Source of the DNA: Verrucomicrobiota bacterium
GTDB lineage: Bacteria; Verrucomicrobiota; Verrucomicrobiia; Opitutales; Seribacteraceae
Length of the DNA stretch: 64,000 bases
NCBI GenBank assembly: GCA_027622665.1
Contig: JAQBYT010000005.1
Coordinates: 132,419-196,418, forward strand
Direction: 5' to 3'
Both the position numbers and the translations under genes were made by a program. Below, one piece after another: positions 20,022-52,800 of the stretch; positions within the stretch are counted from its first letter, which is position 1, and every line of letters starts with the position of its first letter. The notes under the pieces are model-generated. The model had not been told where the DNA came from and ran no database searches. It saw only the letters and a list, made by a program, of their open reading frames with translations.

Positions 20022-20230
20022 GCGGGAAGGGCCACTTCCTCAAATTGTCCCGAGACACCATCCAGAGCATCCTTGGCATTCAGTTCCAAGATGTCTTTCA
20101 AGGCTTCTGAAAGGCTAGTCAGCAATTCTTCTCGGCTTTTTTCCTGAGCATTGGCTCCGGGCACTTCCTTGACCCATCCAACCCACCAGTTACCGTCCTG
20201 CTGGACAATTGCCGTAAAGTTAGCATTCAT
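20018..20230 (-). CDS. hicB: HicB-family antitoxin (short, no DNA-binding domain)
   Basis: FTAIVQQDGNWWVGWVKEVPGANAQEKSREELLTSLSEAL. Confidence 0.85.
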   Translation of the reverse strand: MNANFTAIVQQDGNWWVGWVKEVPGANAQEKSREELLTSLSEALKDILELNAKDALDGVSGQFEEVALPA

Positions 20231-31237: not shown

Positions 31238-32305
31238 ATGTTTGTCTTCGATGTTCATCTCGATCTGAGTCTCAACGCTATCGAGTACAACCGCGACCTC
31301 CGGCGCAGCGCTCGTGAGATCCGCGAAATCGAGGCCGGTATGACCGACCTCAAGGGGCGCGGGCTCGGCACGGTCGCCTTTCCCGAAATGCGCGAGGCCG
31401 GCATCGGCTTATGCGTGGCCACCCAGTTGGCCGGCTGCATGAAGCCCGCGGGTCCCGTAGGCAGTTGGAACTCTCCCGAGCAGGCCCATGCCATGACTCA
31501 GGCACAACTAGCGTGGTATCGTGCCATGGAGGATGTTGGCGAGTTGCGACAGGTTCGCGATTGGCCGGAGATGGAAGCCCATTTGGAAGCATGGCATGCC
31601 GATCCCGCTCATGCTCCCATCGGCTATCTACTGAGCCTGGAGGGAGCCGACTCTCTTCGCACCCTTGCCGATCTGGAAAGCTCATGGAAGCAAGGTCTTC
31701 GGGCGTTGGGGCCTGCCCACTACGGCAAGGGTCGATACGCCCTCGGCCACGATCAAGAAGGTCCTCTATCCGAGCAAGGTCGAGAGCTCTTGCGAGAGAT
31801 GGACAGGTTAGGCCTGATCCTCGACGCTACCCACCTTTGCGACCAAACCTTTTGGCAAGCCATCGACCTCTTTCAAGGTCCCGTCTGGGCGAGCCACCAC
31901 AATTGTCGGGCTCTTGTCGATGATCCGCGCCAGCTCGCCGACGAGCAAATCAAGGCGCTGGCCGATCGTGGCGCCGTCATCGGGATCGCCTTCGACGTCT
32001 GGATGGTTGTTCCCGGCTGGGAGCGGGGCGTCACCACCCATGCCGACAAGCCCGAGGCCAACCTCGAGGCGCTGGCCGATCACGTCGATCACTACTGCCA
32101 ACTACTCGGCACGTCCGCCAACGTCGGGATCGGCACCGACCTCGACGGCGGTTACGGCTCCGAGCAAACCCCTGCCGGGCTGGATTTCATATCCGACCTC
32201 CGCGATTTCCGGGCTACGCTTGAGCGACGCGGCTACAGCCATGACGACCTCGAGGGCATCTTCCACAAAAACTTCCTCGATTTCCTCAAAAAGGCTTGGA
32301 CTTGA
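31238..32305 (+). CDS. Membrane dipeptidase family M19 amidohydrolase
   Basis: FDVHLDL, LSLEGAD, ILDATHL, WASHHNCRAL, VGIGTDLDGG. Confidence 0.9.
   Translation: MFVFDVHLDLSLNAIEYNRDLRRSAREIREIEAGMTDLKGRGLGTVAFPEMREAGIGLCVATQLAGCMKPAGPVGSWNSPEQAHAMTQAQLAWYRAMEDVGELRQVRDWPEMEAHLEAWHADPAHAPIGYLLSLEGADSLRTLADLESSWKQGLRALGPAHYGKGRYALGHDQEGPLSEQGRELLREMDRLGLILDATHLCDQTFWQAIDLFQGPVWASHHNCRALVDDPRQLADEQIKALADRGAVIGIAFDVWMVVPGWERGVTTHADKPEANLEALADHVDHYCQLLGTSANVGIGTDLDGGYGSEQTPAGLDFISDLRDFRATLERRGYSHDDLEGIFHKNFLDFLKKAWT
32192..32305 (+). repeat. 114-bp direct repeat, copy 1 (3' end of the dipeptidase gene including its stop)
   Basis: TCCGACCTCCGCGATTTCC...AAGGCTTGGACTTGA; identical to 32828-32941 except one C/T. 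Confidence 0.97.
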
Positions 32306-32357: not shown

Positions 32358-32618
32358 ATGACATCGTCGAAGAAAACCTTTTTCAAAATTCCGGGTGGAC
32401 GTTCGGACGCTAATCTGCCCTTTGCCGACTTGATCGCATTGGTGAAGAGGTTGGGATTCGACTTGCGAACCAAAGGATCCCATCACATTTTCAGTAAGGA
32501 CGGTGTTCGAGAAATACTTAATTTACAATCGAAAGACGGAATGGCTAAACCTTACCAAGTGAAGCAAGTTCGCAATGTCATTTTAAGATACAAGTTGGGA
32601 GATTACGACGATGCATAA
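32358..32618 (+). CDS. hicA: HicA-family toxin
   Basis: SDANLPFADLIALVKRLGFDLRTKGSHHIFSKDGVREILNLQSKDGMAKPYQVKQVR. Confidence 0.88.
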   Translation: MTSSKKTFFKIPGGRSDANLPFADLIALVKRLGFDLRTKGSHHIFSKDGVREILNLQSKDGMAKPYQVKQVRNVILRYKLGDYDDA

Positions 32619-32820
32619 ATATGAAATCATTACCTACTGGAGCGAAGAGGACGGATCTTTCATTGCGGAAGTACCTGAACTTGCCGGATGCATGGCGGAT
32701 GGATCCAGTCATGAGGAGGCTGTGCGCAACGCCCATCGCGTTATCGACGAATGGATTGCTACGGCCAAGGAACTCGGTCGCGACATACCTGAGCCCAAAG
32801 GTCGTTTGACCTTCGCGTAG
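32611..32820 (+). CDS. hicB: HicB-family antitoxin
   Basis: YEIITYWSEEDGSFIAEVPELAGCMADGSSHEEAVRNA...ELGRDIPEPKGRL. Confidence 0.9.
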   Translation: MHKYEIITYWSEEDGSFIAEVPELAGCMADGSSHEEAVRNAHRVIDEWIATAKELGRDIPEPKGRLTFA

Positions 32821-32827: not shown

Positions 32828-32941
32828 TCCGACCTCCGCGATTTCCGGGCTACGCTTGAGCGACGCGGCTACAGCCATGACGACCTCGAGGGCATCTTCC
32901 ATAAAAACTTCCTCGATTTCCTCAAAAAGGCTTGGACTTGA
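32828..32941 (+). repeat. 114-bp direct repeat, copy 2
   Basis: Duplicate of 32192-32305, with CAT in place of CAC. Confidence 0.97.
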
Positions 32942-36900: not shown

Positions 36901-37011
36901 CACCGCATGACAATCGTCGGCCCCGGCCAAATGCCCGTGATCGGTCGCAAGACCGTGGACGAATTCGGGGCCGACCTAATCCGCCGATGGATAGCCGAAA
37001 TGAAACCCTAG
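33982..37011 (+). CDS. CBM9-like + PQQ-dependent sugar dehydrogenase (GSDH beta-propeller) + di-heme cytochrome c fusion
   Basis: PVIDGKGDDPAW...LCWDRDNLYF...DDVFELFF (CBM9-like); HNGAAIDFGPDGFLYVTTGDG, WAYGFRNPWR, GANYGW; heme motifs CMFCH and CANCH. Confidence 0.85.
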   Translation: MRKAVSFLALSFLCGVHAEAGEPSVCRWTYVPPVIDGKGDDPAWKNAASVGPFRRAWDKDPAKRKPLTATAAKLCWDRDNLYFFARMEDHDLFAEKTEHDADLWLDDVFELFFKPSEGFPGYYEFEFNPRNAVLDVYFPQRGIGELRRLKSNFPFHLETAVNLEGSLNESTDKDRGWSVEGKIPWRDFIRGGGRPHAGDIWKYAACRYDYSVDFEGPNLSSNAPLKHLSFHRYEDYLPLLFEGPQGDHPDRAFGLTSLPPVTGLKVKGRPGKPSPYEPQNAYPKLEGLSMPISVVAIPNANVLLAITQDRAYGNTRIIRFEDKPEVESVQAVLTQKGTAYDFAFHPRFAENGYLFIGWNDGNNTRVSRFRLDPSTHGIDPDSEVVFLTWDGNGHNGAAIDFGPDGFLYVTTGDGSTDSDVRLNGQRTDGLHAKLLRIDVDKPADGKLYSVPADNPFVGQAGFAPETWAYGFRNPWRIDVDEVTGHVWVGNNGQDLWEQVYFVTKGANYGWSVFEGSRPFYADRKLGPTPVSKPIFEHSHAESRSLTGGIVYRGKALPKLNGSYLYGDYLTGKIWAASHDGKKATIPIELADTSLKITDFNLDSRGELLVLDHGESKLGGSIQRLVPTPPEVKENAFPKTLSATGLFSDLSKRVLAPGVLAYSVNAEQWADGAGQSRALALPAFPDETGELSTLPVGFRNRGVWELPEGTVLLKTLSYPAPAGERPVETQLLTLQGGDWAAYVYKWNDSGTDADLVGESGEEVTLSLASPGGIRKQAWRHASRAECMFCHSRAAGFALGMNTLQMNRDHPYPQSVDNQLRVLDRLGLLSDDWSGETRNTLRNELLQKEDHERRQLPEVLDGVKDRVKELFGGDRPYPHARSDRLVRTPSSPAYARQADPLDETMPLDARARSYLQANCANCHVGAGGGNAMINLSHAVEPDKRELFDLKPKHLDFGIRDARLVARGKPDRSVLLHRMTIVGPGQMPVIGRKTVDEFGADLIRRWIAEMKP

Positions 37012-37058
37012 CGAAGCAGACTCTTTCGCCTCCTAAAGTAAAAAATTCCCCCCGCATT

Positions 37059-37382
37059 GTCATTGCGAGGAGGGGCGCAGCCCCGACGCGGCAATCCAGC
37101 GGAACCACGGGCAGCGCCCACCACGATCCTGACTGGATTGCCGCGCCCCGAAGGGCTCGCAATGACAAAAAGGGGGCAGCGCGTGGCTTATCACCTAAAC
37201 GAACTCCAATCGTAATAGTTCCCAATTCCGAACACACTCCCTTTGCCCCCCAGTCACCACACACACCCTGTCATTGCGAGGAGCGTGAGCGACGCGGCAA
37301 TCCAGCGGAACCATGGGCAACGCCCACCACGACTAAGACTGGATTTCCGCGTCGGCCTCTGCGAGAGCCTCCTCGCAAGGAC
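37059..37382 (+). repeat. GTCATTGCGAG-type repeat cluster 2 (two full elements: 37059-37166 and 37270-37382)
   Basis: Left arms GTCATTGCGAG..CGCGGCAATCCAG; right arms CTGGATTKCCGCG..CTCGCAAKGAC; conserved internal linker. Confidence 0.95.
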
Positions 37383-37420
37383 AAGGAAAAGCGAAAGGAG
37401 TAGGATTTTAAACCCGTGCC

Positions 37421-37456
37421 TTGACTTCCTTATGTATATTGCCTAGATATACAATA
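37421..37456 (+). promoter_or_regulatory. brnTA promoter/operator
   Basis: TTGACT at 37421; inverted repeat TGTATAT-N7-ATATACA (37433-37453) immediately before the ATG at 37457. Confidence 0.6.
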
Positions 37457-37759
37457 ATGATCGAAGACATTACTGGTTTCGATTGGGACGAGGCCAACCT
37501 TCTGAAGAATTGGGAGAAGCATGGCGTCACTCACTTGGAGGCCGAACAGGTCTTTTTCAATCAGCCCATCTTGTTGTTTGATGACGGAAAGCATTCCGAA
37601 CGCGAACCGAGGTGGTACGTCTTGGGGCGGACGGATGCCAATCGCTCCTTATTCGTTGTCTTTACCGCAAGAGAATCAAAAATCCGGGTCATCTCGTCCC
37701 GGGACATGAGTCGAAAGGAAATAAACATTTATGAAAAAGAAAAACAAAAGCTTTCCTGA
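37457..37759 (+). CDS. brnT: BrnT-family toxin
   Basis: GFDWDEANLLKNWEKHGV...EAEQVF...HSEREPRWYVLGRT...IRVISSRDMSRKE. Confidence 0.9.
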   Translation: MIEDITGFDWDEANLLKNWEKHGVTHLEAEQVFFNQPILLFDDGKHSEREPRWYVLGRTDANRSLFVVFTARESKIRVISSRDMSRKEINIYEKEKQKLS

Positions 37760-38015
37760 GTTTAAGTCGGAGGAAGAGGAACGAGCCTTCTGGGCTCAGA
37801 ACGATTCAGTCGGATTGATTGATTGGGAGTCCGCTCAACAGGCGACTTTCCCCGCCCTCAAGCCTAGCCTCAAGTCCATCTCCATCCGCTTGCCCGAGAG
37901 CATGATCGACCAGCTCAAGGTGATGGCCAACAAGCGGGACGTTCCCTACCAGTCCCTCGTCAAGACCTTCCTCTCCCAAAAAATCAGTGAGGAACTCTCA
38001 GTCGGCGCGTCGTAA
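37731..38015 (+). CDS. brnA: BrnA/CopG-family antitoxin
   Basis: PEFKSEEEERAFWAQNDS...KSISIRLPESMIDQLKVMANKRDVPYQSLVK. Confidence 0.88.
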   Translation: MKKKNKSFPEFKSEEEERAFWAQNDSVGLIDWESAQQATFPALKPSLKSISIRLPESMIDQLKVMANKRDVPYQSLVKTFLSQKISEELSVGAS

Positions 38016-38045
38016 GTCTTGCCTCCCTTTTGCACCACTCACCCT

Positions 38046-38369
38046 GTCATTGCGAGGAGCGTGAGCGACGCGGCAATTCAGCGGAAGCATAGGGCAGCGC
38101 CCACCACGACTCGGACTGGATTGCCGCGTCGGCCTCTGCGAAGGCCTCCTCGCAATGACAACGAGGAAAAACGAAAGGCATGGATTGATGGCGTAGTTGC
38201 TACCGCTCCGGTTTCCTATTCCGTCCACACACTCTTTGGGTCTCCAGTACCCCAACTCACCTTGTCATTGCGAGGATGGGCACAGCCCCGACGCGGCAAT
38301 CCAGCGGAAGCATGGGCAGCGCTTGCTACGATCCATCTGGATTGCCGCGCCCCAAGGGCTCGCAATGAC
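38046..38369 (+). repeat. GTCATTGCGAG-type repeat cluster 3 (two full elements: 38046-38159 and 38264-38369)
   Basis: Same arms and linker as cluster 2; the inter-element spacer of about 100 bp is shared with 49528-49627. Confidence 0.95.
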
Positions 38370-38426
38370 AAAAGGGAGAGGCGAGCATTGTCGAAAAGCG
38401 GCGACTGAAATCCAACAAGCCTGAGT

Positions 38427-38461
38427 TTGACTTTTTGGAGTTGTCGGAACATCCTTTGGGT
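38427..38461 (+). promoter_or_regulatory. Putative leaderless promoter of the orphan hicB
   Basis: TTGACT-N17-CATCCT, then 6 nt to the ATG at 38462; no Shine-Dalgarno sequence. Confidence 0.45.
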
Positions 38462-38632
38462 ATGGTTTTTAAAGCGATTGTACGACCCGCTGAAGAAGGA
38501 GGCTTTTGGGGTGAGGTGCCTGCCTTGCCCGGCTGCGTTAGCCAAGGCGAGACTCAGGAAGAATTGCTGGAAAACCTCAAGGAATCCGCCATAGGTTGGC
38601 TCGAGGCATCTCAGGACGAAGACGAACTTTGA
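38462..38632 (+). CDS. hicB: Orphan HicB-family antitoxin
   Basis: FKAIVRPAEEGGFWGEVPALPGCVSQGETQEELLENLKESAIGWL; no adjacent hicA. Confidence 0.85.
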   Translation: MVFKAIVRPAEEGGFWGEVPALPGCVSQGETQEELLENLKESAIGWLEASQDEDEL

Positions 38633-38683
38633 CCTAGTTTCTTGTAAGGTATTCTACCTTCCCTCTCACCCTATATGCACTCT

Positions 38684-38801
38684 GTCATTGCGAGTAGGGG
38701 CATAGCCCCGACGCGGCAATCCAGCGGAAGCATAGGCAGCGCTTACAACGACCCGGACTGGATTGCCGCGTCGGCCTCTGCGAGAGCCTTCTCGCAATGA
38801 C
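38684..38801 (+). repeat. GTCATTGCGAG-type repeat cluster 4 (one full element)
   Basis: GTCATTGCGAG at 38684 and CTCGCAATGAC at 38791. Confidence 0.95.
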
Positions 38802-38987
38802 AACACGGGGGGCGAATGGGCATGGAGTCCCGCGACTGAAGGTTTTGCAAGGGCAGAACAATTCGGTTGTTTCCAAAGATATCCGCCGAAGCTTTACCTT
38901 GTGTGACTTTTGTAATTACATGAGATTTATAATCCCCTCATCTTTATTCCTATCCCCTTTTAGATCAAACCCACAACTCCTTCAGTT

Positions 38988-40319
38988 ATGAAACCGCGTT
39001 CCATTCGATTACTTCCGCTCCTTGCGGTTTGGGCTGCCGGATTGATGGGGATGGGTTCGGCCTCGGCCAATCAAGGCAACACTTGGGACATGAACGTCAC
39101 GCAGGTTGATATAGGATGGGAGTTTGTTATGTTTCTGAAGTCGGATGGATCATTATGGCGAATGGGTTCCAATAGTTCTAAAATTCCGGAATTAATCGAT
39201 ACTGGTGTTACTCAGCTTGCTGCTGGTGCAAATCACGGAATGTATGTTAAATCCGATGGTTCACTTTGGACATTTGGGAGTAACAATCGCGGACAGCTCG
39301 GTAACGGTACCACCACCTACGGTAGCGTTCCCGTTGAGATTGTTTCTTCTGGAGTAACGCAAGTCTCGGCAGGAGCTGATCACAGCTTGTACATCAATGA
39401 TGATGGCAGTTTGTGGGCGATGGGTCAAAATTATTTCGGACAACTAGGTGTAGGAACAAGTACAACTCATATGGAGGCAGGAAGTACTGTTCCGGTAAAG
39501 GTCGTTGAAAACGGTGTGTTGAAAATTTCAGCAGGGTGGGGGTTTAATTTAATGCTCAAGAATGATGGTTCCTTGTGGGCATGGGGAACCAACTCTAAGG
39601 GCCAGTTTGGGAATGGAACATCAGTTAGCTCATCTCCTTGGATTGGTAGTGAAATTCCAGAGAAAGTTTTGGATTCCGGAGTAGTTGAAATTGCAGCAGG
39701 CGGTAAGCACAGCCTCTTCTTAAAGGCGGACAATTCCCTTTGGACCATGGGATTCAACTATGACGGTCAATTGGGTATCGGTTCAAACACTTCTATTACT
39801 TCACCTGTGCACGTGGTTTCTTCTAGTGTGACAAGAATTGCTGCGGGGGAAAGTCACAGTCTCTTTTTGAAAACCGATGGTTCGCTCTGGACGATGGGGA
39901 AAAACAAAGATGGACAAATAGGTGACGGCACTACCACCGACCAAACTACGCCGGTATCCATCGTACCAGCTGACCTTAGAATGATTGGTAGTGGCATGAT
40001 CGCCGGCACCGATCGCAATCCTTATACGCGTTCGGCACAACTACGATTCCCCGAAACGAAGGCCAGCATGATCGTCGGGCGCTGTGTTTGGGGTAAGACA
40101 GAAAAAGATTCTGATACGCTGACCATTCACCGCGTTTTCGACGCTCCCGGCTTCGAGCCCATGTTCTTGGAGAAGCCCGTGTGCACAATGGAAGAGATCA
40201 TTGCGCAGCAAACCCTCAACGCGATCGGCCTCTATATCTATTCCGACAAAGTGCTCGATGAAATCCGCATTGGCCCCACGCTCAACAGTGTGATGGTCCG
40301 CACCAAGCCTCTGCGCTGA
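38988..40319 (+). CDS. RCC1-repeat exported protein fused to an unrelated C-terminal fragment (chimeric)
   Basis: Signal peptide; about six RCC1-type repeats (IAAGxxHSLFLKxDGSLWTMGxNxxGQLG). After about 39980 the codon style changes and the sequence resembles the C-terminus of the next gene. Confidence 0.75.
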   Translation: MKPRSIRLLPLLAVWAAGLMGMGSASANQGNTWDMNVTQVDIGWEFVMFLKSDGSLWRMGSNSSKIPELIDTGVTQLAAGANHGMYVKSDGSLWTFGSNNRGQLGNGTTTYGSVPVEIVSSGVTQVSAGADHSLYINDDGSLWAMGQNYFGQLGVGTSTTHMEAGSTVPVKVVENGVLKISAGWGFNLMLKNDGSLWAWGTNSKGQFGNGTSVSSSPWIGSEIPEKVLDSGVVEIAAGGKHSLFLKADNSLWTMGFNYDGQLGIGSNTSITSPVHVVSSSVTRIAAGESHSLFLKTDGSLWTMGKNKDGQIGDGTTTDQTTPVSIVPADLRMIGSGMIAGTDRNPYTRSAQLRFPETKASMIVGRCVWGKTEKDSDTLTIHRVFDAPGFEPMFLEKPVCTMEEIIAQQTLNAIGLYIYSDKVLDEIRIGPTLNSVMVRTKPLR

Positions 40320-40355
40320 ACTTGCACTTAGTTCCCAACTCCAATCAAAAATCCT

Positions 40356-42533
40356 ATGAAGCTACTCATCACAAATTCACTTCGCCGCTTGTCTGCCATG
40401 GCAGCTCTCACTGCATTGCTTGCGTCAGCCGCACAAGCCGAACCGCCGGTGAAGGTCTACATCATGGCCGGCCAGTCTAACATGCAGGGCAAGGGCGGCA
40501 TCGAAGGTGATGGCGCTAACTCATTGCGCTCGCTGGTCAATGGTGAGGCCAAGAAGGAGTTCCAGTTTCTCGTTCAAGACAATGGCGAGTGGGTCGAGCA
40601 CAAGGACGTATGGGCGCACTACGACCTGGCTCCCTTCCAAGGGATGCGGCATGGCCCGCTCAAGCCGGGCTTCGGATCTTCCGCCGGCCAGATCGGACCC
40701 GAACTCGGCTTCGGTCATGTGATCGCGGACTCCAACGAGGGCAAAGTCCTCCTGATCAAAGCCGCTTGGGGCGGCAAGAGCATCGGGCACAACTTTCTGC
40801 CACCCAGTGTCGGCAAGTATCCCAAGCCCAAGGATCCGAATGATCCCGGCTATTTCTACCACCGTACCCTCGACTTGGTCAGCGAGGTTTCCGAAAACAT
40901 CGAGACGCTTTTTCCCGATTACAAGGGGCAGGGAGTGGAGATCGCCGGCTTCGGTTGGCACCAGGGCTGGAATGATCAATACGGTGGTCTGGATGCGAAG
41001 TACGAAGCCAACATGGCAGCCTTCATCAAGGACATCCGCAGTGCCGAGCACGGCCTCGGCGTGCCCGGTCTACCTTTCGTCATCGCGACCAGCGGCAACA
41101 TTGGCGGCGAGAGTGTGATCAAGCAGAGCCAGTTGGCCATGGCCGACACCAAGAAGTATCCCGATTTAGCCGGCAACGTTGCCGTGGTGGATACCGACAA
41201 GCCCTACGGGCCGAAGCAGATGGGCTTCAAGTTCAACAAGGATGGCAAGCCTGCAGACAAGGTGGGTTATCACTGGGACAGCAATTCGCGCGCTTATCTC
41301 AATATTGGCCGTGCCATGGCCATGGAGATGCAAAAGCTCAAGAAGCCCAAATCCCCAGCCAGATTCCGGGCCGTTGGCACTGAAAATGGAGTGCGGTTGA
41401 ATTGGCAGCTCGGCACCGAAAAACCCAAGGGTGTGGAGATCCTGCGCAATGGCAAGAAGCTGGACGCCAAGATCTCACCGACCCAAACCGCTTTTGTCGA
41501 CAGCTCGGCCCTTCCCGGAGCCAACAGCTACGAGCTCATTCTCGACATGCCCTCCGGCAAGGTGAAGTTCAATGACTCCTGTGACACCTCGGTCACGAAT
41601 CTCACTGCTTATCGCAGTCTCGAAGGCGTGATGCTCAAGTGGGAGGCCCGCGGCAAGTATGACGCTTTTCGGATCACTCGCGACGGCAAGGTGATTGCCG
41701 ATGCGGTGGCTGCCGATGCCCTCAGCTACGAGGACAAAACCGCGCCCGCCAAAGGTAAGGTCAGCTACGTCATCCAGCCCACTACCGGCAAGGTGACCCC
41801 GGCCACACTGGAGATGAGTATCGGAGTGGCAGACGCCGGTGGCGCACTGGTGTATGAGCCCTTCGATTACCCGACGGATGCCGATGAGCCACAGAGCGCG
41901 CTAGGCAAGTCGGGGGCTTTTGGTACCACGGGCGAATACGTCACTCTGGATGAGAAACCCAAGCACTTGCCCAAGATCATTGCCGGGGGCTTGAGTCATG
42001 GCGCGCTGCCCGTGTCAGGCAATTGCGCCCAAGGGCATCGTTGGAGCAAAGGATTCGGCATCGATCTAGACGACAGCATCAGCAAGGCCGGCCTGCTGGA
42101 TGACGGCGCCACCATGTGGATCAGTTTACTGTTCCACATTCACGGCAAAGGCGCCGGTGCAAAAGTTTCACTGCAGTCAGCCGATGGCAAAGAGGGGATT
42201 GGGTTCGCGCAATCGAGAGGGACCAACTCATTCGTCATTGAGGATGGGGCCGAGAAAGAGAGGCTCTTTGTCAAAGGGGTGTTAGCTAACACCACATACC
42301 TTTTTGTCGCCAAGATGGTGTGGGGTAAGGACGAGGAGCCGGACCAGTGGATCCCCTACTTCGTGCCGGAAGACCTGAAGTTGCCCGAAAAGCACGGACG
42401 CGTGTTCACCGAGCCCTTTAACATCGACCAATCCAAGCTGAGCCGCCTGATGCTGGAGGGCGGGGAGTCATCCTATGTGGACGAAATCCGCGTCGGCCCG
42501 ACTTTCGAATCGGTGATCGGCGGCGCTAAATAA
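40356..42533 (+). CDS. Sialate O-acetylesterase (SASA/CE6-like SGNH) with C-terminal beta-sandwich domains
   Basis: Signal peptide; VYIMAGQSNMQG, IGPELGFG, LIKAAWGGKS, WHQGWND, GYHW. Confidence 0.85.
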   Translation: MKLLITNSLRRLSAMAALTALLASAAQAEPPVKVYIMAGQSNMQGKGGIEGDGANSLRSLVNGEAKKEFQFLVQDNGEWVEHKDVWAHYDLAPFQGMRHGPLKPGFGSSAGQIGPELGFGHVIADSNEGKVLLIKAAWGGKSIGHNFLPPSVGKYPKPKDPNDPGYFYHRTLDLVSEVSENIETLFPDYKGQGVEIAGFGWHQGWNDQYGGLDAKYEANMAAFIKDIRSAEHGLGVPGLPFVIATSGNIGGESVIKQSQLAMADTKKYPDLAGNVAVVDTDKPYGPKQMGFKFNKDGKPADKVGYHWDSNSRAYLNIGRAMAMEMQKLKKPKSPARFRAVGTENGVRLNWQLGTEKPKGVEILRNGKKLDAKISPTQTAFVDSSALPGANSYELILDMPSGKVKFNDSCDTSVTNLTAYRSLEGVMLKWEARGKYDAFRITRDGKVIADAVAADALSYEDKTAPAKGKVSYVIQPTTGKVTPATLEMSIGVADAGGALVYEPFDYPTDADEPQSALGKSGAFGTTGEYVTLDEKPKHLPKIIAGGLSHGALPVSGNCAQGHRWSKGFGIDLDDSISKAGLLDDGATMWISLLFHIHGKGAGAKVSLQSADGKEGIGFAQSRGTNSFVIEDGAEKERLFVKGVLANTTYLFVAKMVWGKDEEPDQWIPYFVPEDLKLPEKHGRVFTEPFNIDQSKLSRLMLEGGESSYVDEIRVGPTFESVIGGAK

Positions 42534-42886
42534 GCGTACCACTGTGTGAAACTGCCCCAGCTTTGCCTGCGAAGGGCGGACACTTAAGCCCTCGGAAAGG
42601 GGCATTGGAAATGCAACAACTCTGCGCACACATCGAGTTTGCCGATGGATGGGGCAGAGGCGGCATTTGGGGCGAAAACTTGAAATCTAGAGTTTCCCTT
42701 GGATAATTTCTGATGAAGTATCAGCAGGTCCGTTAGAAACCCATCTGCCTGGATCGATTGCTCGGGGCTCGTGCCATCTCAACGGGACTGCGCGCAAGCA
42801 TCACCCATCACCCGACCAACCCCCTTTCTCCCCATCTCCGATCCCTTCAACGGCGACCTCAAGCGCCTCACGCAAAAAGCAAATTC

Positions 42887-43840
42887 CTAGCAATTGTGGA
42901 ACGTCCCGTCGCCGGGCAGGATTTTCGCCGAGAAAGCCGCTTTTGGCCGCTTAGCGCTTTTCTCACTAACATAGAAACGCAAGCTGCGAGTCGTGGTGTG
43001 TCCGGCCCGGTCAGCGACGCTCGCAGTGAGGGTCACGAGTTCCCTTACGGGCAGCGCCTGCGGGGGTCGTATCGGCAGGATGCAGCAATTCGCATCGCGG
43101 CGAAAAGCGCGGCCAGGGACGTTCTGATTGGCGGGCGTATCGTCGGAGAGAGGCTGGTCGAAGGAGACCGACAGAGAAGATAGGTCGATTCCCGATCCGC
43201 CGTCCGCATAGTGGAGGACGATTCGCGGGAACTGTGACCAGCTCTGATGGGTGGGGCTGATGATCGTCAGTTCGGGGGAGCCATCGTCTCTGCGCGCTTC
43301 ACTTGATGGTATCTTAGCGGTGAGTTCTGCACAGTGATCGCTATGGCTGTTCTCTGTCCCGATGTGCTGGATGGCATAGTGGTAGGGCATTCCCGGCAGT
43401 GCGGTGCGATCGGTGAATCGGCCGACCCGATCCTTCACGGGCGCGGCGAAACTCTCGTCCTGATGGCGCTGTCCGACAATCTCGATGAGCTGGCGATCAC
43501 CCTCATCGACATTCGGAGCAAGGCTGCGAAACACCTTGTAGTCGCGGACGTTGGCAGCGAACTGCGGAGCCTCCCATTGCAGGGTGACGCCTTTGGCGGT
43601 CGCCTCGATGGCCTTCAAGTTTCTCGGAACGTCTGCGCCCACGCCTTGCAGATTGCGGTGGGTGTTGAGCCAAATGTGGACTTCGTCGCCGCCCGATCCG
43701 AGCCAGACATCGTAGCTGCCGTCGCCGTCCGCATCGTTGCGGCTGACGAAAACGCGGAAGAACATCGAACTATCGCCGCCCGGCGGGCGCGCATCGGCGG
43801 TTGTTTTTCCCGGCTCGACCTTCTTCTTCGCGTCATCGCC
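42887..43840 (-). pseudogene. FN3/Ig-like domain region, probably the frameshifted and truncated C-terminus of the upstream SGNH gene
   Basis: VPRNLKAIEATAKGVTLQWEAP...YKVFRS...FTDRTALPGMPYHYAI is FN3-like. The frame stays open back to a G6 run at 43839-43844 and ends abruptly after PKAAFSAK. Confidence 0.6.
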
Positions 43841-44600
43841 CCCCAGTATCCATGAGTTCTTTCAGTGTCGTGCGAATCGCGTCCGCCCAGACTTGGTAAC
43901 CTATGTCGGTGAGATGTCCGACGCGGTCTTTGATGGCGCCTTCGGTCTCGATAAGCTTGTCATTGATGTTGAGGTAGAAGATCCGCTCGCCGTCATGGAG
44001 CTTTGCAATGGTGCCGTTGATGACAGCGTGCTTGTCCTTGCCGAAGAATTTGGGGAAGACGCCGAGGAGAAGAATTTTGGCGTGGGGCACCTTGGCCTTG
44101 AGCCTGTCGCAGAGCGCCTCAATCCCGATGGCGATGTCCGCGGGTTCGTCTCGGGTGATCCCCTTGTTGTTGGTTCCGATCATGACGATGGCGACTTTCA
44201 GGTTCTGCAGGCCATCGATCTCGCCGTTATCGAGGCGCCAGAGCACGTGCTGGGTGCTGTCGCAGTTGATGCCTAAGTTGAGCGCCTTCATCGGCACGTA
44301 CTCCTTCTCCCAGATCGCCAATCCGGATCCCTCCTGATCCCATCCGTCCGTGATCGAATCGCCGATAAAAACGAGCTCGGCCTCCGCGCGTCCCGGCGCC
44401 GCCAAAATGTCTTCGTGCCTCTGCTTCCACCAGCCATTGGGCAACCTCTTCGTCCACGGGTTCTCGACGGGTGTCGCGGCCGCGCACTTGGCGGGCGATA
44501 CCGCCGTCCCCTTTTCGTCTGCGCGGCCGAGGTGACCCTGACAGAGCACACCTAGAACGAAGAGGAGGGCGAACGGAAATTGGCGGGACGGATGCATCAC
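43833..44600 (-). CDS. SGNH/GDSL esterase (PAF-acetylhydrolase-like)
   Basis: Signal peptide; FIGDSITDGW, NLGINCDSTQHVLWRL, MIGTNN, DRVGHL. Confidence 0.85.
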   Translation of the reverse strand: MMHPSRQFPFALLFVLGVLCQGHLGRADEKGTAVSPAKCAAATPVENPWTKRLPNGWWKQRHEDILAAPGRAEAELVFIGDSITDGWDQEGSGLAIWEKEYVPMKALNLGINCDSTQHVLWRLDNGEIDGLQNLKVAIVMIGTNNKGITRDEPADIAIGIEALCDRLKAKVPHAKILLLGVFPKFFGKDKHAVINGTIAKLHDGERIFYLNINDKLIETEGAIKDRVGHLTDIGYQVWADAIRTTLKELMDTGGR

Positions 44601-44680
44601 TTTATTTATATCCCGGGAGCGATTTCGTCAAGACGATTGCCCGATGCCCCGATGCCCGTCCGTTAGCGCTCGCCCCGTAT

Positions 44681-46129
44681 CTACAGACGGGTCGGTAAGA
44701 ACTGTTTGAACATCGGCCGCAGTGCTTCGACCCAGACTTCATACCCTTTCTCCGACAACGTCGTCCCGTCCTTCCCGATAGCATGCGGCGTCTCGAGCAA
44801 GGCGTTGGAGATATCGAGATAGAAAATGTTCTCGCCGTCCGCGAGCTTGGCGATACGCGCGTTCACATCGTCAATTTGCTCCCCGTCTGGACCTTGCGGA
44901 AAGAGTCCCATGAGGACGATCTTTGCCCCCGGCGCGTTCGTCTTTACGCGGGCGCAGATCGCCCCGATCCCCGCCGCGATGTCTTCCGCTTTGTCGCCTT
45001 GGACGATCCGGTTTCCCGCGCCGACCTCGACGACCAGCAGCTTAAGATTCGACCAGGCTTTATCGACCGCCCCGTTGTCGATGCGCCACAGAACGTGCTC
45101 GGTCGAGTCTTTGGGCATTCCCAAGTTGTAGGCCTTGATCGGTGCGACGTCCCGATCCCAAACCGTTTTGGGGAATCGGTAAGTATGGTTGCTGCCGAGG
45201 AATGCGAGTTCGGCCCTGCGGCGTTCGAACTGTCTGCCCCAGGTGAGGATATTGAAGTGCTTTAAATACCATCGCGGGCTATTCGGGTTGCGCACCGGCG
45301 TGGCCGCCCGGCAACGTTTCACCTCTGTCTGCGGATCACGCTTTCCGGTGGTCACGGGTTCAGGAGGCACGCCGATCGGATCCTGAAACTCCACTTTGGG
45401 AGCCATCAGGTTTCGGATCGTGGCGCGAATGGAATCGGCCCAGATTTGGTATCCGGTCTCGGAAAGGTGACCGACGATGTCGGCGATCGCGCCCTCGGTT
45501 TCCGTCAACTTCGGGTTGATATTGGCAAAGAAGATCCGTTTGCCGTCGTGCAGTTTGGAGAGCTCCCGGTTGAGGGCATCGCTGTTGTCGCGACCCCAGA
45601 TGCGCGGGAACACGCCCATGAGGATGATCCTGACCTGCGGGGCGCGCCTCTCGAGCGCGTCGCAGAGGGCGATGATGCCTTTTTCGACCTCCGCGTCGGA
45701 ATGCCCGTTGATGCCTTTGTTATTCACCCCGATCTCCACCACCACCACTTTGAGTTTGGACATGCCGTCCACTTCGCCATTTTGAATACGCCAGAGCGCG
45801 TGCTGGGTGCTGTCGCAGACGATGCCCAGATTGACAGCGCCCAACGGGACGAACTCCTTCTCCCAAATCCGCAACCCGCCGGATTCCGAATCCCAGCCGT
45901 CGGTGATGGAGTCGCCGACAAAGGCGATCTGACTTTCGGCGCGGCCCGGAAGCGCCATGATGGCCTCGCGCCGTTTGTTCCACCATCCCTCAGGATTTCC
46001 CCGGGTCCATGGGTTTGGGGTGGCTACTTCGGCGCGGGGGCGTTCTGGGGGCGCTTCGTCGCCGGCGACCGCTGCGGCCAAGCCTAACCACACAAGCCAC
46101 GCCCATGGGATCCGGAGTACAATGCGCAT
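44681..46129 (-). CDS. Tandem SGNH/GDSL esterase (second domain degenerate)
   Basis: Domain 1: FVGDSITDGW, EIGVNN, DIVGHL. Domain 2: FLGSNHT, EVGAGN, DGTTL. Confidence 0.85.
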   Translation of the reverse strand: MRIVLRIPWAWLVWLGLAAAVAGDEAPPERPRAEVATPNPWTRGNPEGWWNKRREAIMALPGRAESQIAFVGDSITDGWDSESGGLRIWEKEFVPLGAVNLGIVCDSTQHALWRIQNGEVDGMSKLKVVVVEIGVNNKGINGHSDAEVEKGIIALCDALERRAPQVRIILMGVFPRIWGRDNSDALNRELSKLHDGKRIFFANINPKLTETEGAIADIVGHLSETGYQIWADSIRATIRNLMAPKVEFQDPIGVPPEPVTTGKRDPQTEVKRCRAATPVRNPNSPRWYLKHFNILTWGRQFERRRAELAFLGSNHTYRFPKTVWDRDVAPIKAYNLGMPKDSTEHVLWRIDNGAVDKAWSNLKLLVVEVGAGNRIVQGDKAEDIAAGIGAICARVKTNAPGAKIVLMGLFPQGPDGEQIDDVNARIAKLADGENIFYLDISNALLETPHAIGKDGTTLSEKGYEVWVEALRPMFKQFLPTRL

Positions 46130-46214
46130 GATTTTTCTTTCGGCTTTACTTAGCCCGTCGGCAAGAGGAAAATGTTAGTGGTGATCTTTCGAATCCGTTG
46201 GCGGAACCGCCCAA

Positions 46215-46955
46215 ATGATTGACCTCGTGAAATTTCGAAGCGCTTTTCTCCCGGGAGATGCAATCCGCCGCGCGGGCAGGGTTACCGCTGTCGCCGTTTG
46301 TCTGCTGATCATTTCCGCCCCTTCCGTCCGTGCGACGCTCATCGTCACCGCCATTTGCAAAGACGGTGTCGTGGTCCGTTCCGACAAGCGCAACGCGATC
46401 AAACGCCGCGGGAAACCGGTAGAGTATCAGGACGTCCTCAACAAGGTTTTCGCGAACGAAGACAAGTCGATCATCATTTACAACCACGGCATCAACCGCA
46501 TCAACCGAGTCCCTTGGATTGAGCATGCAACCACTTTGGCCGCGAAGCTACAAGAGGCAAAGGTTGCAGACATTGGCGCGGCGATGAATCTGGTCGAAGC
46601 GACGCTCGCGGACGCCATGGCCGCCGAATTCGCCCGCAATAAACACGATGATTTTTCCGCGTTTGTCGTCGTGATGAAGATGGCGGATGACCGCTACCGC
46701 GCGGGAGAAATCAGTTGGAAGAAGGGTCGGCCGGTGGGCAAGAAGGCATTGGGCGGAATCTTTTTGTCCGGCTCCGGTAAGAAATACTGCCATCGGACCG
46801 ACGAGCAAAAGGGCAACGGCCATTGGGCAAAGATGAGCGTGGAACAGGCAAGGGCGGAGATTGGGGCTCTGTTTGATGAGGCCTCCAAGCGTCAAGCCGA
46901 GGCCAAGGGCCATGAGTTCTCAGAGCAGTCCGATGAGATGATGGTGGAGTGGTAA
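46215..46955 (+). CDS. Putative exported Ntn-hydrolase, proteasome-beta/HslV-like
   Basis: Signal-like leader ending VRA, then TLIVTAICKDGVVVRSDKR...LNKVF and a later LSGSG. Confidence 0.6.
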   Translation: MIDLVKFRSAFLPGDAIRRAGRVTAVAVCLLIISAPSVRATLIVTAICKDGVVVRSDKRNAIKRRGKPVEYQDVLNKVFANEDKSIIIYNHGINRINRVPWIEHATTLAAKLQEAKVADIGAAMNLVEATLADAMAAEFARNKHDDFSAFVVVMKMADDRYRAGEISWKKGRPVGKKALGGIFLSGSGKKYCHRTDEQKGNGHWAKMSVEQARAEIGALFDEASKRQAEAKGHEFSEQSDEMMVEW

Positions 46956-47724
46956 AGCTGAACCTTTCGGAATGACGATGGATGCACGCCCGTAGTGTCG
47001 CAAATGTCCTATCATTTGCACCCCCCGTAAGGTCAAAATACTCAGCCGAACCCGAAAACACTGCTATTTCAGCACCGGACGACGTCCCCGGATCTCCGAT
47101 CTCAGCCGACATGACGGTCGCACGATCCGGTTCTCCATACGGAAAGTCCTCGGAGATCGGATCCATCCTCGGTATCAGTATCGCCGGTTCCAGGAGTTTC
47201 GCCCTCCGCCGCCTTTCTCTGGAGAGAGCTCCACCCCTACCAGGTGACCGGGAGCCACGCCCCCGCCGGTTCGGTTTACCTGCACTCCCCAGACAGCTTC
47301 CCGAGCCTGCTCGCCCTGCCGGAGGATCTCCCCTGCCCCTTTCCATGCGCTTTGCCGCCGCGCGGGGGCGCAGATACCGCGACACTCGCAGAGCGCAAGG
47401 GGCTGGTCGGGAAGAGCTTCCGACCGTCATGCTGCCGATAGCCCAATCGTGAATCCGTATTTGTAGGGGTTCATCGCCACAAACAGCATGAAGTCGTCGG
47501 TGACGATCGTGGTGCAGTCTATGCAGAGCAGATGCCGATCGAATCGGCGAGCGCGTCTTCGGCCGGGGTCGAAGAGGTCGGCGGCTAACCCGGCACCCCT
47601 GTCGTAGAGTCGCCGTTGTGATGACACCATTTGGTGCCATTTCTCCCGGCACGCCCCTCACGTCCAGCACCCCTCAAGTAGCTGCGATGGCAGCGCCTCG
47701 TCGAGCGCCCTGCGCGCCGGCCGT

Positions 47725-48245
47725 GTGGTAGACGAAGTCATCACCGAGGTGAGTCGATGCCAGAGCAACCTCGCGGCGAATCTGCAGAGTTATCTCAATC
47801 ACCTCGAGGAGCAAAAGAAGAAGATCGGGGCCGCGCTCCCGCCGACCGGGCCAAAATCGAGTGCGATAGAAAATGTTTTCGCCGAGGCCCAGAGCGAAAT
47901 GGATTCCCTGTTCTGCAGCCGGGAACAGCTGTGGGGCCGGATCCTCGACGAGACGCCGCCAGAGCAGGTGACAGATCTTGGCCGCCGCCCGAAGTTCCTC
48001 ATCAGCGCCGCCAGACCCAATGATCTGGAGGGTCAGCTGCTGGGTCTCCGACCGGGCCGGCCGCTCGTCTACCTCGGCCTCGGGCGACCCCGCGACCTTG
48101 CGGAGTTTGCCGACCGGGGCGCGGCTCTCCTAGAAGGCCGCTACCCGATTGGAAATGGCTGCGAACTGCTCCGCGCCAACATGCTGGTCACCGATTCCAT
48201 GGGGATGGTCGGCGAGGCTGCCAAGGCCCCGGATGACCGCACCGC
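47725..48245 (+). pseudogene. Unidentified gene fragment(s)
   Basis: Coding-like codon usage with no recognisable family; runs directly into a different frame at about 48246. Confidence 0.3.
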
Positions 48246-48735
48246 GTGGCTCGGCCATTTCCTCTGGCGGTGCTGGCGGTGGTGGGTGGGACTCTGTTGG
48301 TGATCGGGCCGTCTTTACTGATGCATGCGACCAAAGATCTCGAGCCGGTTCACACCATGGAGCCGTGGGCTGAGTACATGCGCCGCTCATTTAAAATGGC
48401 GGTCGGTGGCATTGGCTACATCGTGATCGCTCTGGGCACGGTGTTCCCGTTTTTGATGAAGGTGGCAGAGGCGTGGGCTCAAGATGCCGGGCCGGATGCT
48501 GGGGCGCTTGCTGGCGATCAACACGGCGGGGGCGATTGTGGGTTCACTGTTGTGCGGATTCTTCCTGCTCCCGACCTTGGGCATGTGGGGCACTTTAAAG
48601 GCGCTGACGGCAGCCTACTTGGTGATGGCACTGTTGGTGCCGTCCGGTTGGGGCGGCGCGGCGATTGCGTGCCGCGTGGTAGGGCTGGGCGCGCTGGCCT
48701 TGTTGTTCACCGTGCTCGATCCCTCGGGCTTGCCT
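48246..48735 (+). pseudogene. Internal fragment of a fused MFS/spermidine-synthase-type membrane protein, frameshifted
   Basis: LGTVFPFLMK.../GRMLGRLLAINTAGAIVGSLLCGFFLLPTLG; one extra G at about 48470 splits the frames; both ends are missing. Confidence 0.7.
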
Positions 48736-48808
48736 GAACGTTCCCGCTGTTCTTTCCGGTGGTTACCTGCATGCCTATGTCGCCCATTTTTCCAAGTGGG
48801 CGATTACG

Positions 48809-49432
48809 GTGGCGGAGCCCGCTGCGAGGCCTTCCTTCGTGCCCAACTTATTGGTTAGCGGATTGAACGCCGACCCGGTGACCGAGCGGTGGTACGAATC
48901 GGATTGGCTTGGCTCCTTCAACGATACCGGAAGCGGCTGGATATATCATGACGAACATGGCTGGCTCTACCCGGCTGAGGACGGTTCCGGCAACTATTGG
49001 TTGTGCCACGCCAACCTTGGGTGGCTCTGGACGGAACCAAGCGTATACGGGAATGCCGAAGGACATCGCTTCCTCTTTTCATCAAAGGCGGATTCGTGGC
49101 TGTACTATGAATCAAGCGCCAAGAATTTCTACGTTTATAAGGATTCCACGGGGATGAACCATGAAGGAGTTTCCTTTGCCCGGTTGAAAGTGTCTTCCTC
49201 GGACGCCTCTGTGGGGCGGGTTACGGGTGACGGATATTACGAGGTCGGAACCATGGTGAAACTGACTGCGGTTGCCAATCCGGGGTACCGGTTTACCGAG
49301 TGGCGAAGCTCCACCAGGGGCATGTCGGGTACCTCGGAGACCTTGGACGTTCAAGTCGTCGGCGGTGAAAGCATCACCGGGGTCTTCGCCAAGATGACGA
49401 GCGAGGACATCATCTCTTCGGTTTTTGACTAG
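48809..49432 (+). pseudogene. C-terminal part of a surface protein: Trp-rich domain plus InlB B-repeat-like domain
   Basis: WYESDWLGSF...GWIYHDEHGWLY...LGWLWT; GRVTGDGYYEVGTMVKLTAVANPGYRFTEW; no signal peptide and no convincing start. Confidence 0.6.
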
Positions 49433-49798
49433 GATTGCAGCACGATTCTCTGCGAGAGCCTCCTCGCGATGACAACGAGGAAAGCCGGAAGGCATGGATT
49501 GCCACGCCCTAGAGGGCTCGCAATGACAGGGGAAAGTGAAAGGCGTGGATCGATAGCGTAGTTGCGACCGCTCCGGTTTCCTGTTCCGAACACACTCCCT
49601 TTGCCACCCACCCACACCACTCACCTTGTCATTGCGAGGAGGGACAAGTCCCAACGCGGCAATCCAGTGGAAGCATGGGCAGAACTAACAACGACTCGGA
49701 CTGGGTTGCCGCGTCGGCCTCTGCGAGAGCCTTCTCGCAATGACAACAAGGAAAGGCGAAGGGCATGGATTGCTCCGCCCCGAAGGGCTCGCAATGAC
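49432..49798 (+). repeat. GTCATTGCGAG-type repeat cluster 5 (arms R,R,L,R,R)
   Basis: CTCGCGATGAC at 49463; CTCGCAATGAC at 49517, 49734 and 49788; GTCATTGCGAG at 49628. Confidence 0.95.
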
Positions 49799-49839
49799 AT
49801 GGGAAAGTGAAAGGTGCGGCTCCTTCCTCTCGCTTTTTC

Positions 49840-52800
49840 TTATCGTAGGATTACGGCGTCGGCGACTTCGAGGTCGAGGGTTAGGAGTAGACCCGTTTCT
49901 TGTTTCTCGACCTTTAGAGGCTTGCCGCTGGCCCGGGTGATTTTTTTGCTTGGGAATTTTCCGGCCAGTTTCACTTCCAAGTTCTTGATCGGGCCTTTGC
50001 TCCAGTTTGCGAGGGTGATGATCGAGGCGGTTTTCGTTTCCACGATGCAGGACTCGACGAGAGTCTCTGAGCAGGTGACGGGGCGAAGGAGATCGCGGGC
50101 GGGCCAGGCGATGAGATCTCGGGCCGCGGCGTGGAGGTCGGTGGGGTGAAAGTGGCTTAGGGAATCCGCGGCGCTCGAACGATCGGCGGGGATGAGCGGG
50201 ACGGAACCATGATAGTAGGAGAGCCCGGGAAGGAAGGCGCATGACAGGGTTTCTCCTTTCCCCGGGGTGGAGCGGACGATGGCGGGAGAACCGTTTGCGA
50301 ATTTTGCGAGGACTTCCCCGCCCTTGGCTTTCAGTTTTGCTCTTACGGACAAGACGGGAAGCTTGGCGTCGTTCCAACTCGTTTCCGCGATGGGTTTGGT
50401 GAAGGCTATGTCCTGGCGGATCATGTCGATCTGGGCGCCATCGGGTTCTTCGATTCCATTGAGCTCGATTCCGAGCAGGGGGAGAAGCAGTTCGTTGGGC
50501 CGGTCGTACTCGTCGAGAGTTCCGGCCCCGGCGGTGGCGAACAGACGGCCGCCCGCCTTCACCCATTTTGCGATTTTGGCGGATGCGTCTCGGGAAACGT
50601 GCTTGTCTGCGAGATAGAGGACTTTGTACTTGGCGAGAGTGCCGTCGAGGGCATCCGACTCCACGAGGAAGTCGAGAGGAACTTGGGCATGGCGAATGGC
50701 GAGGTAGAGGGAGCGCTTGCCGGCGGCAAAGGAGCCGTGCGAATCTCCCCAGATGTCGCCCGTTTCGCTAAACCAGAGCCCGGCTTGGGCGGGGCGGGGG
50801 CGACCGTTCCATACGACGTCCTCGAACAGTCCGAGTTCTCGAAAGCCCGTGAGGACGGTGGCGTAGTTGTCGAAGTTGTTTACGTAGTTTTCCGTGTAGG
50901 CTGCCTGCACGGGCCGAAACTCGAAGAGGTTTACGATCTGCATGCCGTGCCCGAGGGCTCCGTAGAAGAGACGTCTCCAGGTGTCGGGACGATTGTTCGG
51001 CCAGTGGGCCATGCAGTAATAGTGAATTTTCTGCTCGGGCTTTCCCCGGACGCCGGCACTGAGGAGGTCGAGGTTCAGGTTGTTCAGTTGCATGGAGGCC
51101 ACGGGCATCTGGAATATGTAGTCTTCGCTCCATGGCTGGGTCATGCCTTCAGCCCGAAAGACGTTTACCCACTTGTGGACTTCGCCCAAGTACCTGTGCT
51201 CGGCGGGATAGTGAGGGGAGTAGTTGGCGCCGATGCCGGCGTTGGGAAGATGTTTTCGCAGGATGTCCGTTCGTTCCTTTATCTTGAGGATTCCGTGGTG
51301 GTGGAGGTAGCGCTTGGACCAGTAGAAGAGCCCGGGCCTGTCGGCTTTCGCCTCGTCGGAGACGTCGTAGGAAATGGATTCCCAGTTTTTCGCTCCGGGG
51401 ACGAGGTCGCCCGGCTGCAGTTTTTTTTCCTTGGCGTAGGCTCGAAAGCCATCGGTGGCCTCGGTTCCGCGTGGGCGGGGCAGGCTGATCTCATCGCCGA
51501 GGCTGATCGTGGCGATCTTGTTCGCCCTGTCGGCAAGCTTGGTTTTGCAGTGCTCTTCCAGTTTCGCGGTGGGCACGCCTCGAACGTCGGTATAGCCGTC
51601 TATCCTCGAACCGCGTCCCGAGGTGTCGTTTGTCCGGGTGATGCCAAAGAGTTTTTGAAAGCGATCGACGGCTTTGTCGTAGGCGGGATCGAGCCCCGTG
51701 CGAAAGGTGAGGGCATAGGTGATGCATTGGGTGGGAAGTTTGCCGTGCTTGGGTAACTTTTCGAGTTTGGCGAGGAGATCGAAGGCGACGTCGCGCTCAC
51801 GAATGATTTTGCGAGAATACCGGGTGTCTCCGAAGTATGCGAGGTTGAGGGTTTCGCCCGTGGTCTCGAACTTTCCGATGAGGCTGCGCTTTCCTCGGGC
51901 ATCCACTGCCCCCACTTCCACGGCGACCTTGCCCGCCGGCTTGATCCGGAGTGCCCATTGTCCGCCGTTCATGGTGTCCAGGAGGTGCCCGACTTCCTGC
52001 CATTCGGTTGTTTTCCCGCCCTCGACTTTCAAGGAGAGGGGTTTCCATGACCGCATGTGAACCCAGTAGGGGGAGTGCTCGGTGCCGTTCTTGGCCGTTA
52101 CCGTCACCGCTTTCTTTCCTAGGTTCCTTACCCTTAAGGAAACGTCGCCTTGTTGCGTGAGAAGGCCGTCGAGCGGCAGGTAGCGTTCCTTCTCGATCCG
52201 TTTGGCGACTTCCTCGACGTCGCGGGTAAGCATGATGAGATCGAGATTTCGCTTGGCGGCGGGTTCGGGTTGCTTGCCCGCGAACAGGGTGACGGTGGCT
52301 TTTCCGGGTTTTAGGTTCACGAAGGCATCATGGCCCTCCCAGACAATGTTCTCGGTGGCTCCCCAGCTCCATTTGTGATCAGCTTTCAGCTTTTGGGAGA
52401 ACGCCCAAATCTTGAGGTTTTTTCGGGAACCGTAGAGGCGATCGAAGACTTTGTTTCCTCCTTGCTCGATGCGAATACGAAATTCGGTGGAAAACCGATA
52501 AGCCGCCTCGTAGCGGACAAGTACGTGATACTTGCCGGTCGCCGTGACGTTTACAGCCATGGAGGCGGAAACTTGATCCGCTTGGGCAGGCGCCCCGAGA
52601 AACGCTTGCCGGCTGAGGAAGCAGTTGGCGAAGCTGGCGGCGTAGTAGTTGTCACCCCATTTCTTGGCTCGCCATCCGGTTTCATCGTTTGAGGAGGGCT
52701 TGAATTCTTCGGCCTCCAGGTAATGGTTGCCGTCGGGGGCAGGATCAACGGGTAAGTCGCCTCTGTATGATCGGGGCGTGACTTCTTCCGCAAGCAAGGT

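Follow-up and report, generated by a model that had tools for sequence, protein, structure and literature searches.

The locus described here lies at positions 37059 to 38801 of a 64,000-nucleotide stretch from a Verrucomicrobiota bacterium (the whole stretch is referred to below as the window), where hairpin elements alternate with toxin-antitoxin (TA) genes. Its closest described counterparts, cited here from the available portions of the respective reports, come from several systems. In sedentary chromosomal integrons, of which TA cassettes are a hallmark, repeats likewise alternate with promoter-bearing TA cassettes whose addictive nature would penalize loss (PMC13108822). In the REPtron/BIME system of Escherichia coli, dimers of repetitive extragenic palindromic (REP) sequences with linkers flank an enzyme gene, and at one locus hicAB has replaced that enzyme (PMC3333891). 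For the dRS3/NIME repeats of Neisseria, it was proposed that array-flanked genes are inserted into chromosomal repeat arrays, a hypothesis that concerned surface-antigen genes and a phage recombinase (PMC1797815). Finally, repeats of the kind found here have been tied to small GIY-YIG single-strand nucleases, termed Ssn, whose single-domain genes lie between (C/T)GTC-tagged hairpins (the NTS/SRM repeats) that occur genome-wide (PMC11893778). Both the kind of repeat and the nuclease family are therefore already published. What appears to be new is the presence of TA cassette arrays on such repeats and the swap of an ssn gene for cargo, of which we found no account in the literature searched (supplements and subscription journals lay outside the search).

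Five palindromic elements of 106–118 bp occupy the locus, all on the forward strand, in the order E1-E2-[brnT-brnA]-E3-E4-[hicB relic]-E5-[RCC1-repeat gene, 38988–40319], the genes being assigned by Pfam. E1 (37059–37166) lies downstream of a 1009-aa GSDH-domain gene whose stop is at 37011; in it two TGTC-tagged hairpin arms stand head to head around an asymmetric linker. It is followed by a non-coding spacer (37167–37269), which has a short stretch in common with a spacer at 49530–49626, and by E2 (37270–37382). Beyond brnT and brnA lie E3 (38046–38159; 91% identical to E2), a second non-coding spacer (38160–38263), 51 nt of which recur at 90% identity in a cluster at 49.5 kb, E4 (38264–38369; 89% identical to E1) and, past the hicB relic, E5 (38684–38801). 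Each arm consists of TGTC-ATTGCGAG, a variable core and GYGGCAAT-CCAG, and a linker and mirror arm complete each element. The window contains 16 copies of the terminal 12-mer, and 100 shuffles contained none. Whole elements fold with z-scores of -6.1 to -8.0, and single arms fold weakly (z of +0.9 to -2.4 in the four arms tested). An Rfam scan of the window returned a tRNA (63079–63149) as its sole match and nothing on the elements, and NCBIfam gave no family for three translations spanning elements.

The first cargo comprises brnT, encoding a 100-aa toxin (37457–37759; PF04365, E 9e-26), and a gene for a 94-aa BrnA/CopG-type antitoxin (37731–38015; PF12441, E 7.5e-30). Directly upstream of brnT, a reading by eye found TTGACT (37421) and a TGTATAT-N7-ATATACA palindrome (37433–37453), which are likely its promoter and operator; a promoter scan returned no sigma-70 site in 37000–39000. 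The second cargo is a 56-aa hicB frame (38462–38632; PF15919/PF21748), which we call a relic because alignment to the intact hicBA of a relative, G005, reveals a 236-nt internal deletion that took the end of hicB together with its partner hicA. A preliminary description of this locus, made from the letters alone, had proposed palindromic elements of about 110 bp with an asymmetric linker, alternating with self-contained TA cassettes of little more than promoter plus open reading frame. The elements and their layout are as it described; the hicB cargo is a relic, and of the promoter-plus-frame cargo the frames are evident while the promoter was read by eye only.

The element type is spread throughout the source genome of the window (G000, 93.5% complete), in which we counted 145 arms in 37 loci; two shuffles gave none of that quality. 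Within the window there are two further clusters, at 19527–19775 and at 49433–49799, the latter made up of partial arms and one full dimer on the forward strand. TGTC starts 118 of the 119 exact-type arms, most tails after ATC start with CA, and head-to-head dimers predominate. The 119 arms contain 74 distinct cores, 28 of which give better folds than 48 or more of 50 shuffles, and in four arms a T-A stem pair is replaced by C-G. The element is, then, a head-to-head dimer of TGTC-tagged REP-type hairpins, and the earlier suggestion that it resembles (C/T)GTC-tagged REP palindromes was borne out by its tag, tail and dimer form. Like the CGTC-tagged REP families, it has an unpaired TGTC tag, an AT-starting stem and a CCA tail, and forms head-to-head heterodimers with no flanked transposase; unlike them, its arms are bulged and longer than a stem of 8–9 bp with a loop of 4–5 nt, having cores of ~11–22 nt (PMC3733652). 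CGTC repeats for Verrucomicrobia are absent from the available listings of that survey, and the word toxin does not occur in it. Among other loci with such elements, one cluster on contig C7 of G000 (~57 kb; L193:2100-3300) sits between the end and start pieces of what by eye resembles a decayed Y1-transposase-like gene; elements on contig C49 (~171 kb; L185) are bordered by a Fic-domain gene on one side and a type I restriction specificity subunit on the other; and in G033, from another family of the order, elements of the same kind enclose a gene for a small membrane protein (L033:4116-4770).

Several lines of evidence associate the repeat with TA genes. Using six Pfam families we recognized 15 TA modules or toxin matches in G000, eight of which are near an arm (within 600 bp) and five of which have arms on both sides, as against 1.25% and 0.14%, respectively, under random placement. 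Of called genes of at most 150 aa, 4.1% are near an arm (P 4e-8 for the TA excess). Among 3504 genes called with a simple gene caller, 11 have arms on both sides and nine of these are TA genes, the other two being YccV-like and TPMT-like. We extended the count to toxin loci of relatives, omitting those of G000, antitoxin matches and one split duplicate (several loci share an array and are not independent). Where a genome has at least four arms, an arm lies beside 22 of 38 toxin loci and both sides are flanked in 17; in genomes with fewer than four arms the figure is 1 of 12. Five inter-arm gaps picked blind to their cargo held vapBC (with mazEF adjoining), phd-parE, a DUF2283 pair, a DUF2204 nucleotidyltransferase pair and a MORN protein. 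The enrichment anticipated in the preliminary description is thus strong, yet the copies are also dispersed, and most of the 37 loci sit between ordinary genes and hold no cargo. Just after an array on contig C10 of G000 (L160:2016-2493), two overlapping small genes of 80 and 93 aa without a Pfam match over the cut-off could possibly be an unrecognized TA pair.

Beyond the family, we collected 107 viral and metagenome loci with an arm (27 plus 80 of 121), of which 20 have an inter-arm gap of 250–1500 bp. TA cargo was recognized in two of the 107 and an Ssn-like gene in one. One of the two (L434) has mazEF between elements of the sister-genus type. The other, an IMG/VR phage contig (L363:2000-3730), carries three cassettes separated by single, direct-orientation TGTC arms of the same subtype, each with a gene for a 29-aa Hol-Tox peptide (PF16935; two were scanned), and amounts to an array of type I TA cassettes built on this repeat in a different lineage.

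Comparison across relatives, whose assemblies are fragmented and break at repeats and which as kin are not independent, showed cargo to be gained, lost and swapped at the repeats. In G005, from the same genus (86–89% identity), the GSDH gene is followed by one element and then by intact hicBA. This single element is a hybrid: its left part matches E1 and its right part, with the adjoining flank, matches E4, and therefore 1205 bp including brnTA are missing. The G005 counterpart of E5 is interrupted within its right arm, where a short common stretch links it to ~49352, 10.6 kb further on. A hicBA pair on contig C22 of G000 is also found in G003 (91% identity), at a site with elements only in G000. 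In four genomes the TPMT-like gene occupies one and the same site, between elements.

The clearest exchange is seen in the sister genus, where one site holds phd-parE in G047 (contig C89) and an Ssn-like nuclease gene in G012 (contig C9), within shared flanks that are 94% and 89% identical. In both, the cargo starts directly after GCAATGAC and ends before the next TGTC. Behind a PQQ-domain gene, four genomes differ likewise: G055 has four modules, G012 phd-parE, G053 the nuclease gene and G045 the DUF2204 nucleotidyltransferase pair. A further array (L204) combines the nuclease gene with vapBC. Cassettes are 94–97% identical where their flanks are 72–84% identical (phd-parE, 96.8% against 78% between G055 and G012; the nucleotidyltransferase pair, 95% against 72% between G045 and G055), and cassettes more alike than their flanks suggest transfer of repeat-bounded units between species. 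Whereas in the REPtron/BIME system the enzyme is a Y1 transposase, the tags are GTAG and the repeats were lost on arrival of hicAB (PMC3333891), here the repeats stay; and in place of the surface-antigen genes of the dRS3/NIME hypothesis (PMC1797815), whole TA operons are present, absent or exchanged, in a genome with no IS110/Piv-type gene. The left boundary of a cassette is the end of an element, and right boundaries differ, often fusing into a half element; they vary even for the same phd-parE cassette. Deletions terminate at microhomologies inside arms. The preliminary description had envisaged breakpoints at one fixed repeat position, an expectation these junctions contradict, since they differ between alleles (their positions are approximate because the genomes are 5–12% diverged).

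TA arrays of the same layout also occur on a second, unrelated repeat. In another genus of the family, g3, we detected no TGTC arms in 20 genomes, and in one of these, G020, four TA cassettes are separated by a 95-bp repeat of the form AAGAGTGA... TTCACTCTT. The array (G020:C37, L546:5595-8050; also L547, L548 and L549) carries, one after another, hicBA, brnTA and two relE-type pairs. Two of its cassettes are 70–76% identical to cassettes of TGTC arrays. The array layout is therefore independent of the TGTC repeat. A CACYYYT motif before arms was considered as a link between the two repeat families and rejected, as it precedes 1 of 45, 1 of 41, 10 of 78 and 3 of 44 arms in the main classes. 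Genes for PF05635 (four-helix-bundle) proteins in G020 and G050, the two g3 genomes with such a gene, are flanked by similar heptamer tracts.

We lean slightly towards an account in which TA cassettes are gained, lost and swapped between dimers through homologous or microhomology recombination by the host, with the repeats serving as portable homology arms that were likely spread by Ssn. It takes as its starting points the repeat, the nuclease link in relatives, the TA enrichment, the empty and filled sites and the nuclease-for-TA swap. Dimers would be disseminated by a tiny cassette encoding an Ssn-type GIY-YIG nuclease, which may also nick the repeat and so initiate exchange. DNA of the form repeat-cargo-repeat would then recombine into, or between, chromosomal copies, and incoming DNA could carry repeat-bounded cassettes from species to species where the flanking genes have diverged too far for recombination; ComEC is encoded in four of five genomes searched, G000 included. 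Direct repeats would in turn delete the DNA between them and addictive TA pairs would survive, so that addiction may be why TA pairs, and not other genes, are kept between deletion-prone repeats.

A number of observations weigh against this account. Copies in the window are 71–91% identical in pairs, and their longest exact common stretches, at 13–32 nt, are short for efficient RecA recombination. The difference between G000 and G005 at brnTA may be a gain or a loss, and the identity contrasts between cassettes and flanks are pairwise comparisons. A second array in the window (18951–20230, reverse strand), comprising genes for a ParE/RelE toxin (18951–19196; PF05016) and a Phd antitoxin (19186–19437; PF02604), the element cluster at 19527–19775, hicA (19827–20021) and a likely hicB (20018–20230; no Pfam match at 1e-4), is absent, elements included, from G003 and G006, where its site is element-free; it is therefore not explained by recombination into a resident repeat. 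By eye, the polarity of cassette to element is kept in 12 of 13 cases in this genus, a hint that some step is directed. The contigs examined contained no excised circle. With regard to the nuclease, no Ssn gene was found in any of nine genomes of the genus, G000 among them, and 0 of 163 arms match the published SRM pattern. Moreover, the association with TA genes was not reproduced in 24 other Ssn-bearing genomes, one of which, the source of L204, belongs to the same group as the family. From these we obtained loci for 30 of 51 HicA, 22 of 22 BrnT and 30 of 180 control matches, and arms lay on both sides of none of the 30 HicA or 22 BrnT loci, and on one side of 6 of 52 TA loci as against 5 of 30 controls.

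Where labelled, the sequencing runs that contain the window come from marine, estuarine or aquatic settings, and contigs of four other studies, placed at 90% likeness, provided a view of related populations. In contigs of two studies, 49425–49844 is replaced by 39 other letters (with sides of 228 and 166 nt), and the cluster at 49.4–49.8 kb is therefore polymorphic in near-identical populations. A joint of 37209 to 38407 that skips brnTA, with sides of 30–34 nt that are unique in G000, occurs in runs of two studies and lends weak support to absence of the cassette. Another joint, 37167 to 38258, was set aside as it consists entirely of repeat sequence. Contig joints that go back are no evidence of excision, because they connect one repeat with another and are consistent with tandem arms at other places. 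In one run (X13), brnT is uncovered where the RCC1 block has a cover of ~41, a gap that by itself proves nothing. At ~42817–42885 all four runs have very high summed depth and loose ends, marking another repeated element.

A more far-reaching version, which we regard as possible and advance only tentatively, is that these loci constitute a recombinase-free analogue of integrons. Dimers left by the nuclease would act as docking sites, at which nicking and host repair would capture, stack and exchange cassettes across species; the nuclease gene would be one travelling cassette among others, TA addiction would hold the arrays together, and unrelated selfish repeats such as that of g3 could be recruited to the same end.

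The nuclease itself is found in four of 61 genomes of the family (G012, G047, G053 and G063), each of which encodes a 98-aa GIY-YIG protein (PF01541) whose gene is flanked on both sides by dimers. The four proteins are 93–95% identical and their genes lie at differing sites. Relatives of the G012 protein span many phyla, and of 80 loci encoding them 46 are flanked on both sides by TGTC/CGTC arms, 14 by the ATTGCGAG subtype and 10 by arms matching the published SRM pattern. The expectation of a repeat-flanked nuclease gene elsewhere thus held for the sister genus and failed for G000 and its genus. As 19 of the 132 contig ends of G000 bear an arm, an Ssn gene could be hidden there. A 103-aa GIY-YIG frame in G000 (contig C41) was rejected as an Ssn: it scores 25.9 bits against a profile of 22 Ssn-like proteins and lies 28 kb from an arm, and it resembles the YhbQ type. 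Compared with the Ssn system described so far, the repeats here depart from the SRM pattern, the nuclease was not found in G000, and cargo cassettes and an ssn swap are not described in the available part of that report (PMC11893778).

These genes raise the alternative that TA units are passenger versions of an Ssn mini-element, in which the nuclease would cut single-stranded DNA just outside the TGTC arms and move DNA between dimers, with repair sealing the product. We consider this unlikely, even though nuclease gene and TA cassettes are arranged alike, agree in polarity as judged by shared cassettes, take each other's place at one site with element ends as boundaries, and stand together in L204, while the nuclease gene has reached different sites in four related genomes and the second array of the window occupies a site with no earlier element. 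SsnA does cut a few bases upstream of its own repeat; what the available part of the report describes is cutting, with no strand transfer, and this cutting lowered integration in Neisseria (PMC11893778). Nor does the passenger model sit well with the failure to find an Ssn gene in the nine genomes of the genus, with the differing right-hand boundaries of phd-parE, or with the arrays of g3, which use an unrelated repeat and no arms.

Less probable again is a dedicated, still unknown site-specific recombinase acting in trans on dimers as IntI acts on attC, the explanation that the preliminary description had favored. The loci do display an integron-like trait, in that arrays of repeat-bounded cassettes are gained, lost and reordered; the cassettes are mostly co-oriented and move between sites, whole dimers fold into long imperfect hairpins, and the TA cargo is itself typical of chromosomal integrons (PMC13108822). 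The search for the enzyme went the other way. As had been noted from the window, no integrase, IS110, Y1 transposase (the class of REP-associated tyrosine transposases) or GIY-YIG match was found on its contig. IntI (TIGR02249) is over the cut-off in none of the nine genomes of the genus, and IS110 (PF02371) had no match in G000; the sole Y1_Tnp match in G000 is broken and falls on an arm-free contig, and no tyrosine recombinase lies closer than 7.7 kb to an arm. The attC boxes RYYYAAC and GTTRRRY are absent from both strands of the five elements and their 20-nt flanks. With variable junctions, many dispersed sites and most of the 37 loci free of cargo, the system differs from chromosomal integrons as described in the available text (PMC13108822), and the proposed trans-acting enzyme found no candidate in genome or genus.

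Finally, it is very unlikely that repeats and TA pairs merely insert independently in the same tolerant intergenic spots, with the repeats idle for cargo: seven of the 15 TA modules of G000 have no nearby arm, the closest G020 relative of the window brnTA (68%) has no repeat, enrichment is lacking outside the family and the TPMT-like gene is constant between elements in four genomes, but repeats and cassettes alternate strictly in arrays of up to four modules, cargo boundaries fall at element ends, the empty site carries a hybrid element, and TA genes make up nine of the 11 genes with arms on both sides.

Two other features of the window neighbor the array. A 10.6-kb block between E5 and the next cluster (38802–49432), not in G005, contains the RCC1-repeat gene, esterases and others; the RCC1-repeat gene that opens it has 47% GC in surroundings of ~58%, and further RCC1-repeat genes lie beside elements on contig C22 of G000. 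A hicAB pair at 32358–32820, missing in G005 and present in G003, has no hairpin element and lies between 114-nt direct repeats (32192–32305 and 32828–32941; 99% identical) that represent the 3' end of a dipeptidase gene. It looks like an integration that duplicated the end of that gene.

For CGTC-type REPs, no job is known beyond limiting transformation in Neisseria. The 2007 proposal of array insertion had, in the literature found, no worked example (PMC1797815, from its available text), and here pairs of genomes make the exchange visible: the cassettes can be named, there is a candidate for the enzyme, and at one site a TA pair stands exactly where another genome has the gene for that enzyme. 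The loci offer a case, testable at the bench, for whether Ssn nucleases mobilize DNA. They would also provide a route for TA pairs to spread across the chromosomes of integron-free bacteria, and, to judge from the second repeat family, any dispersed palindrome may be able to give rise to integron-like arrays.

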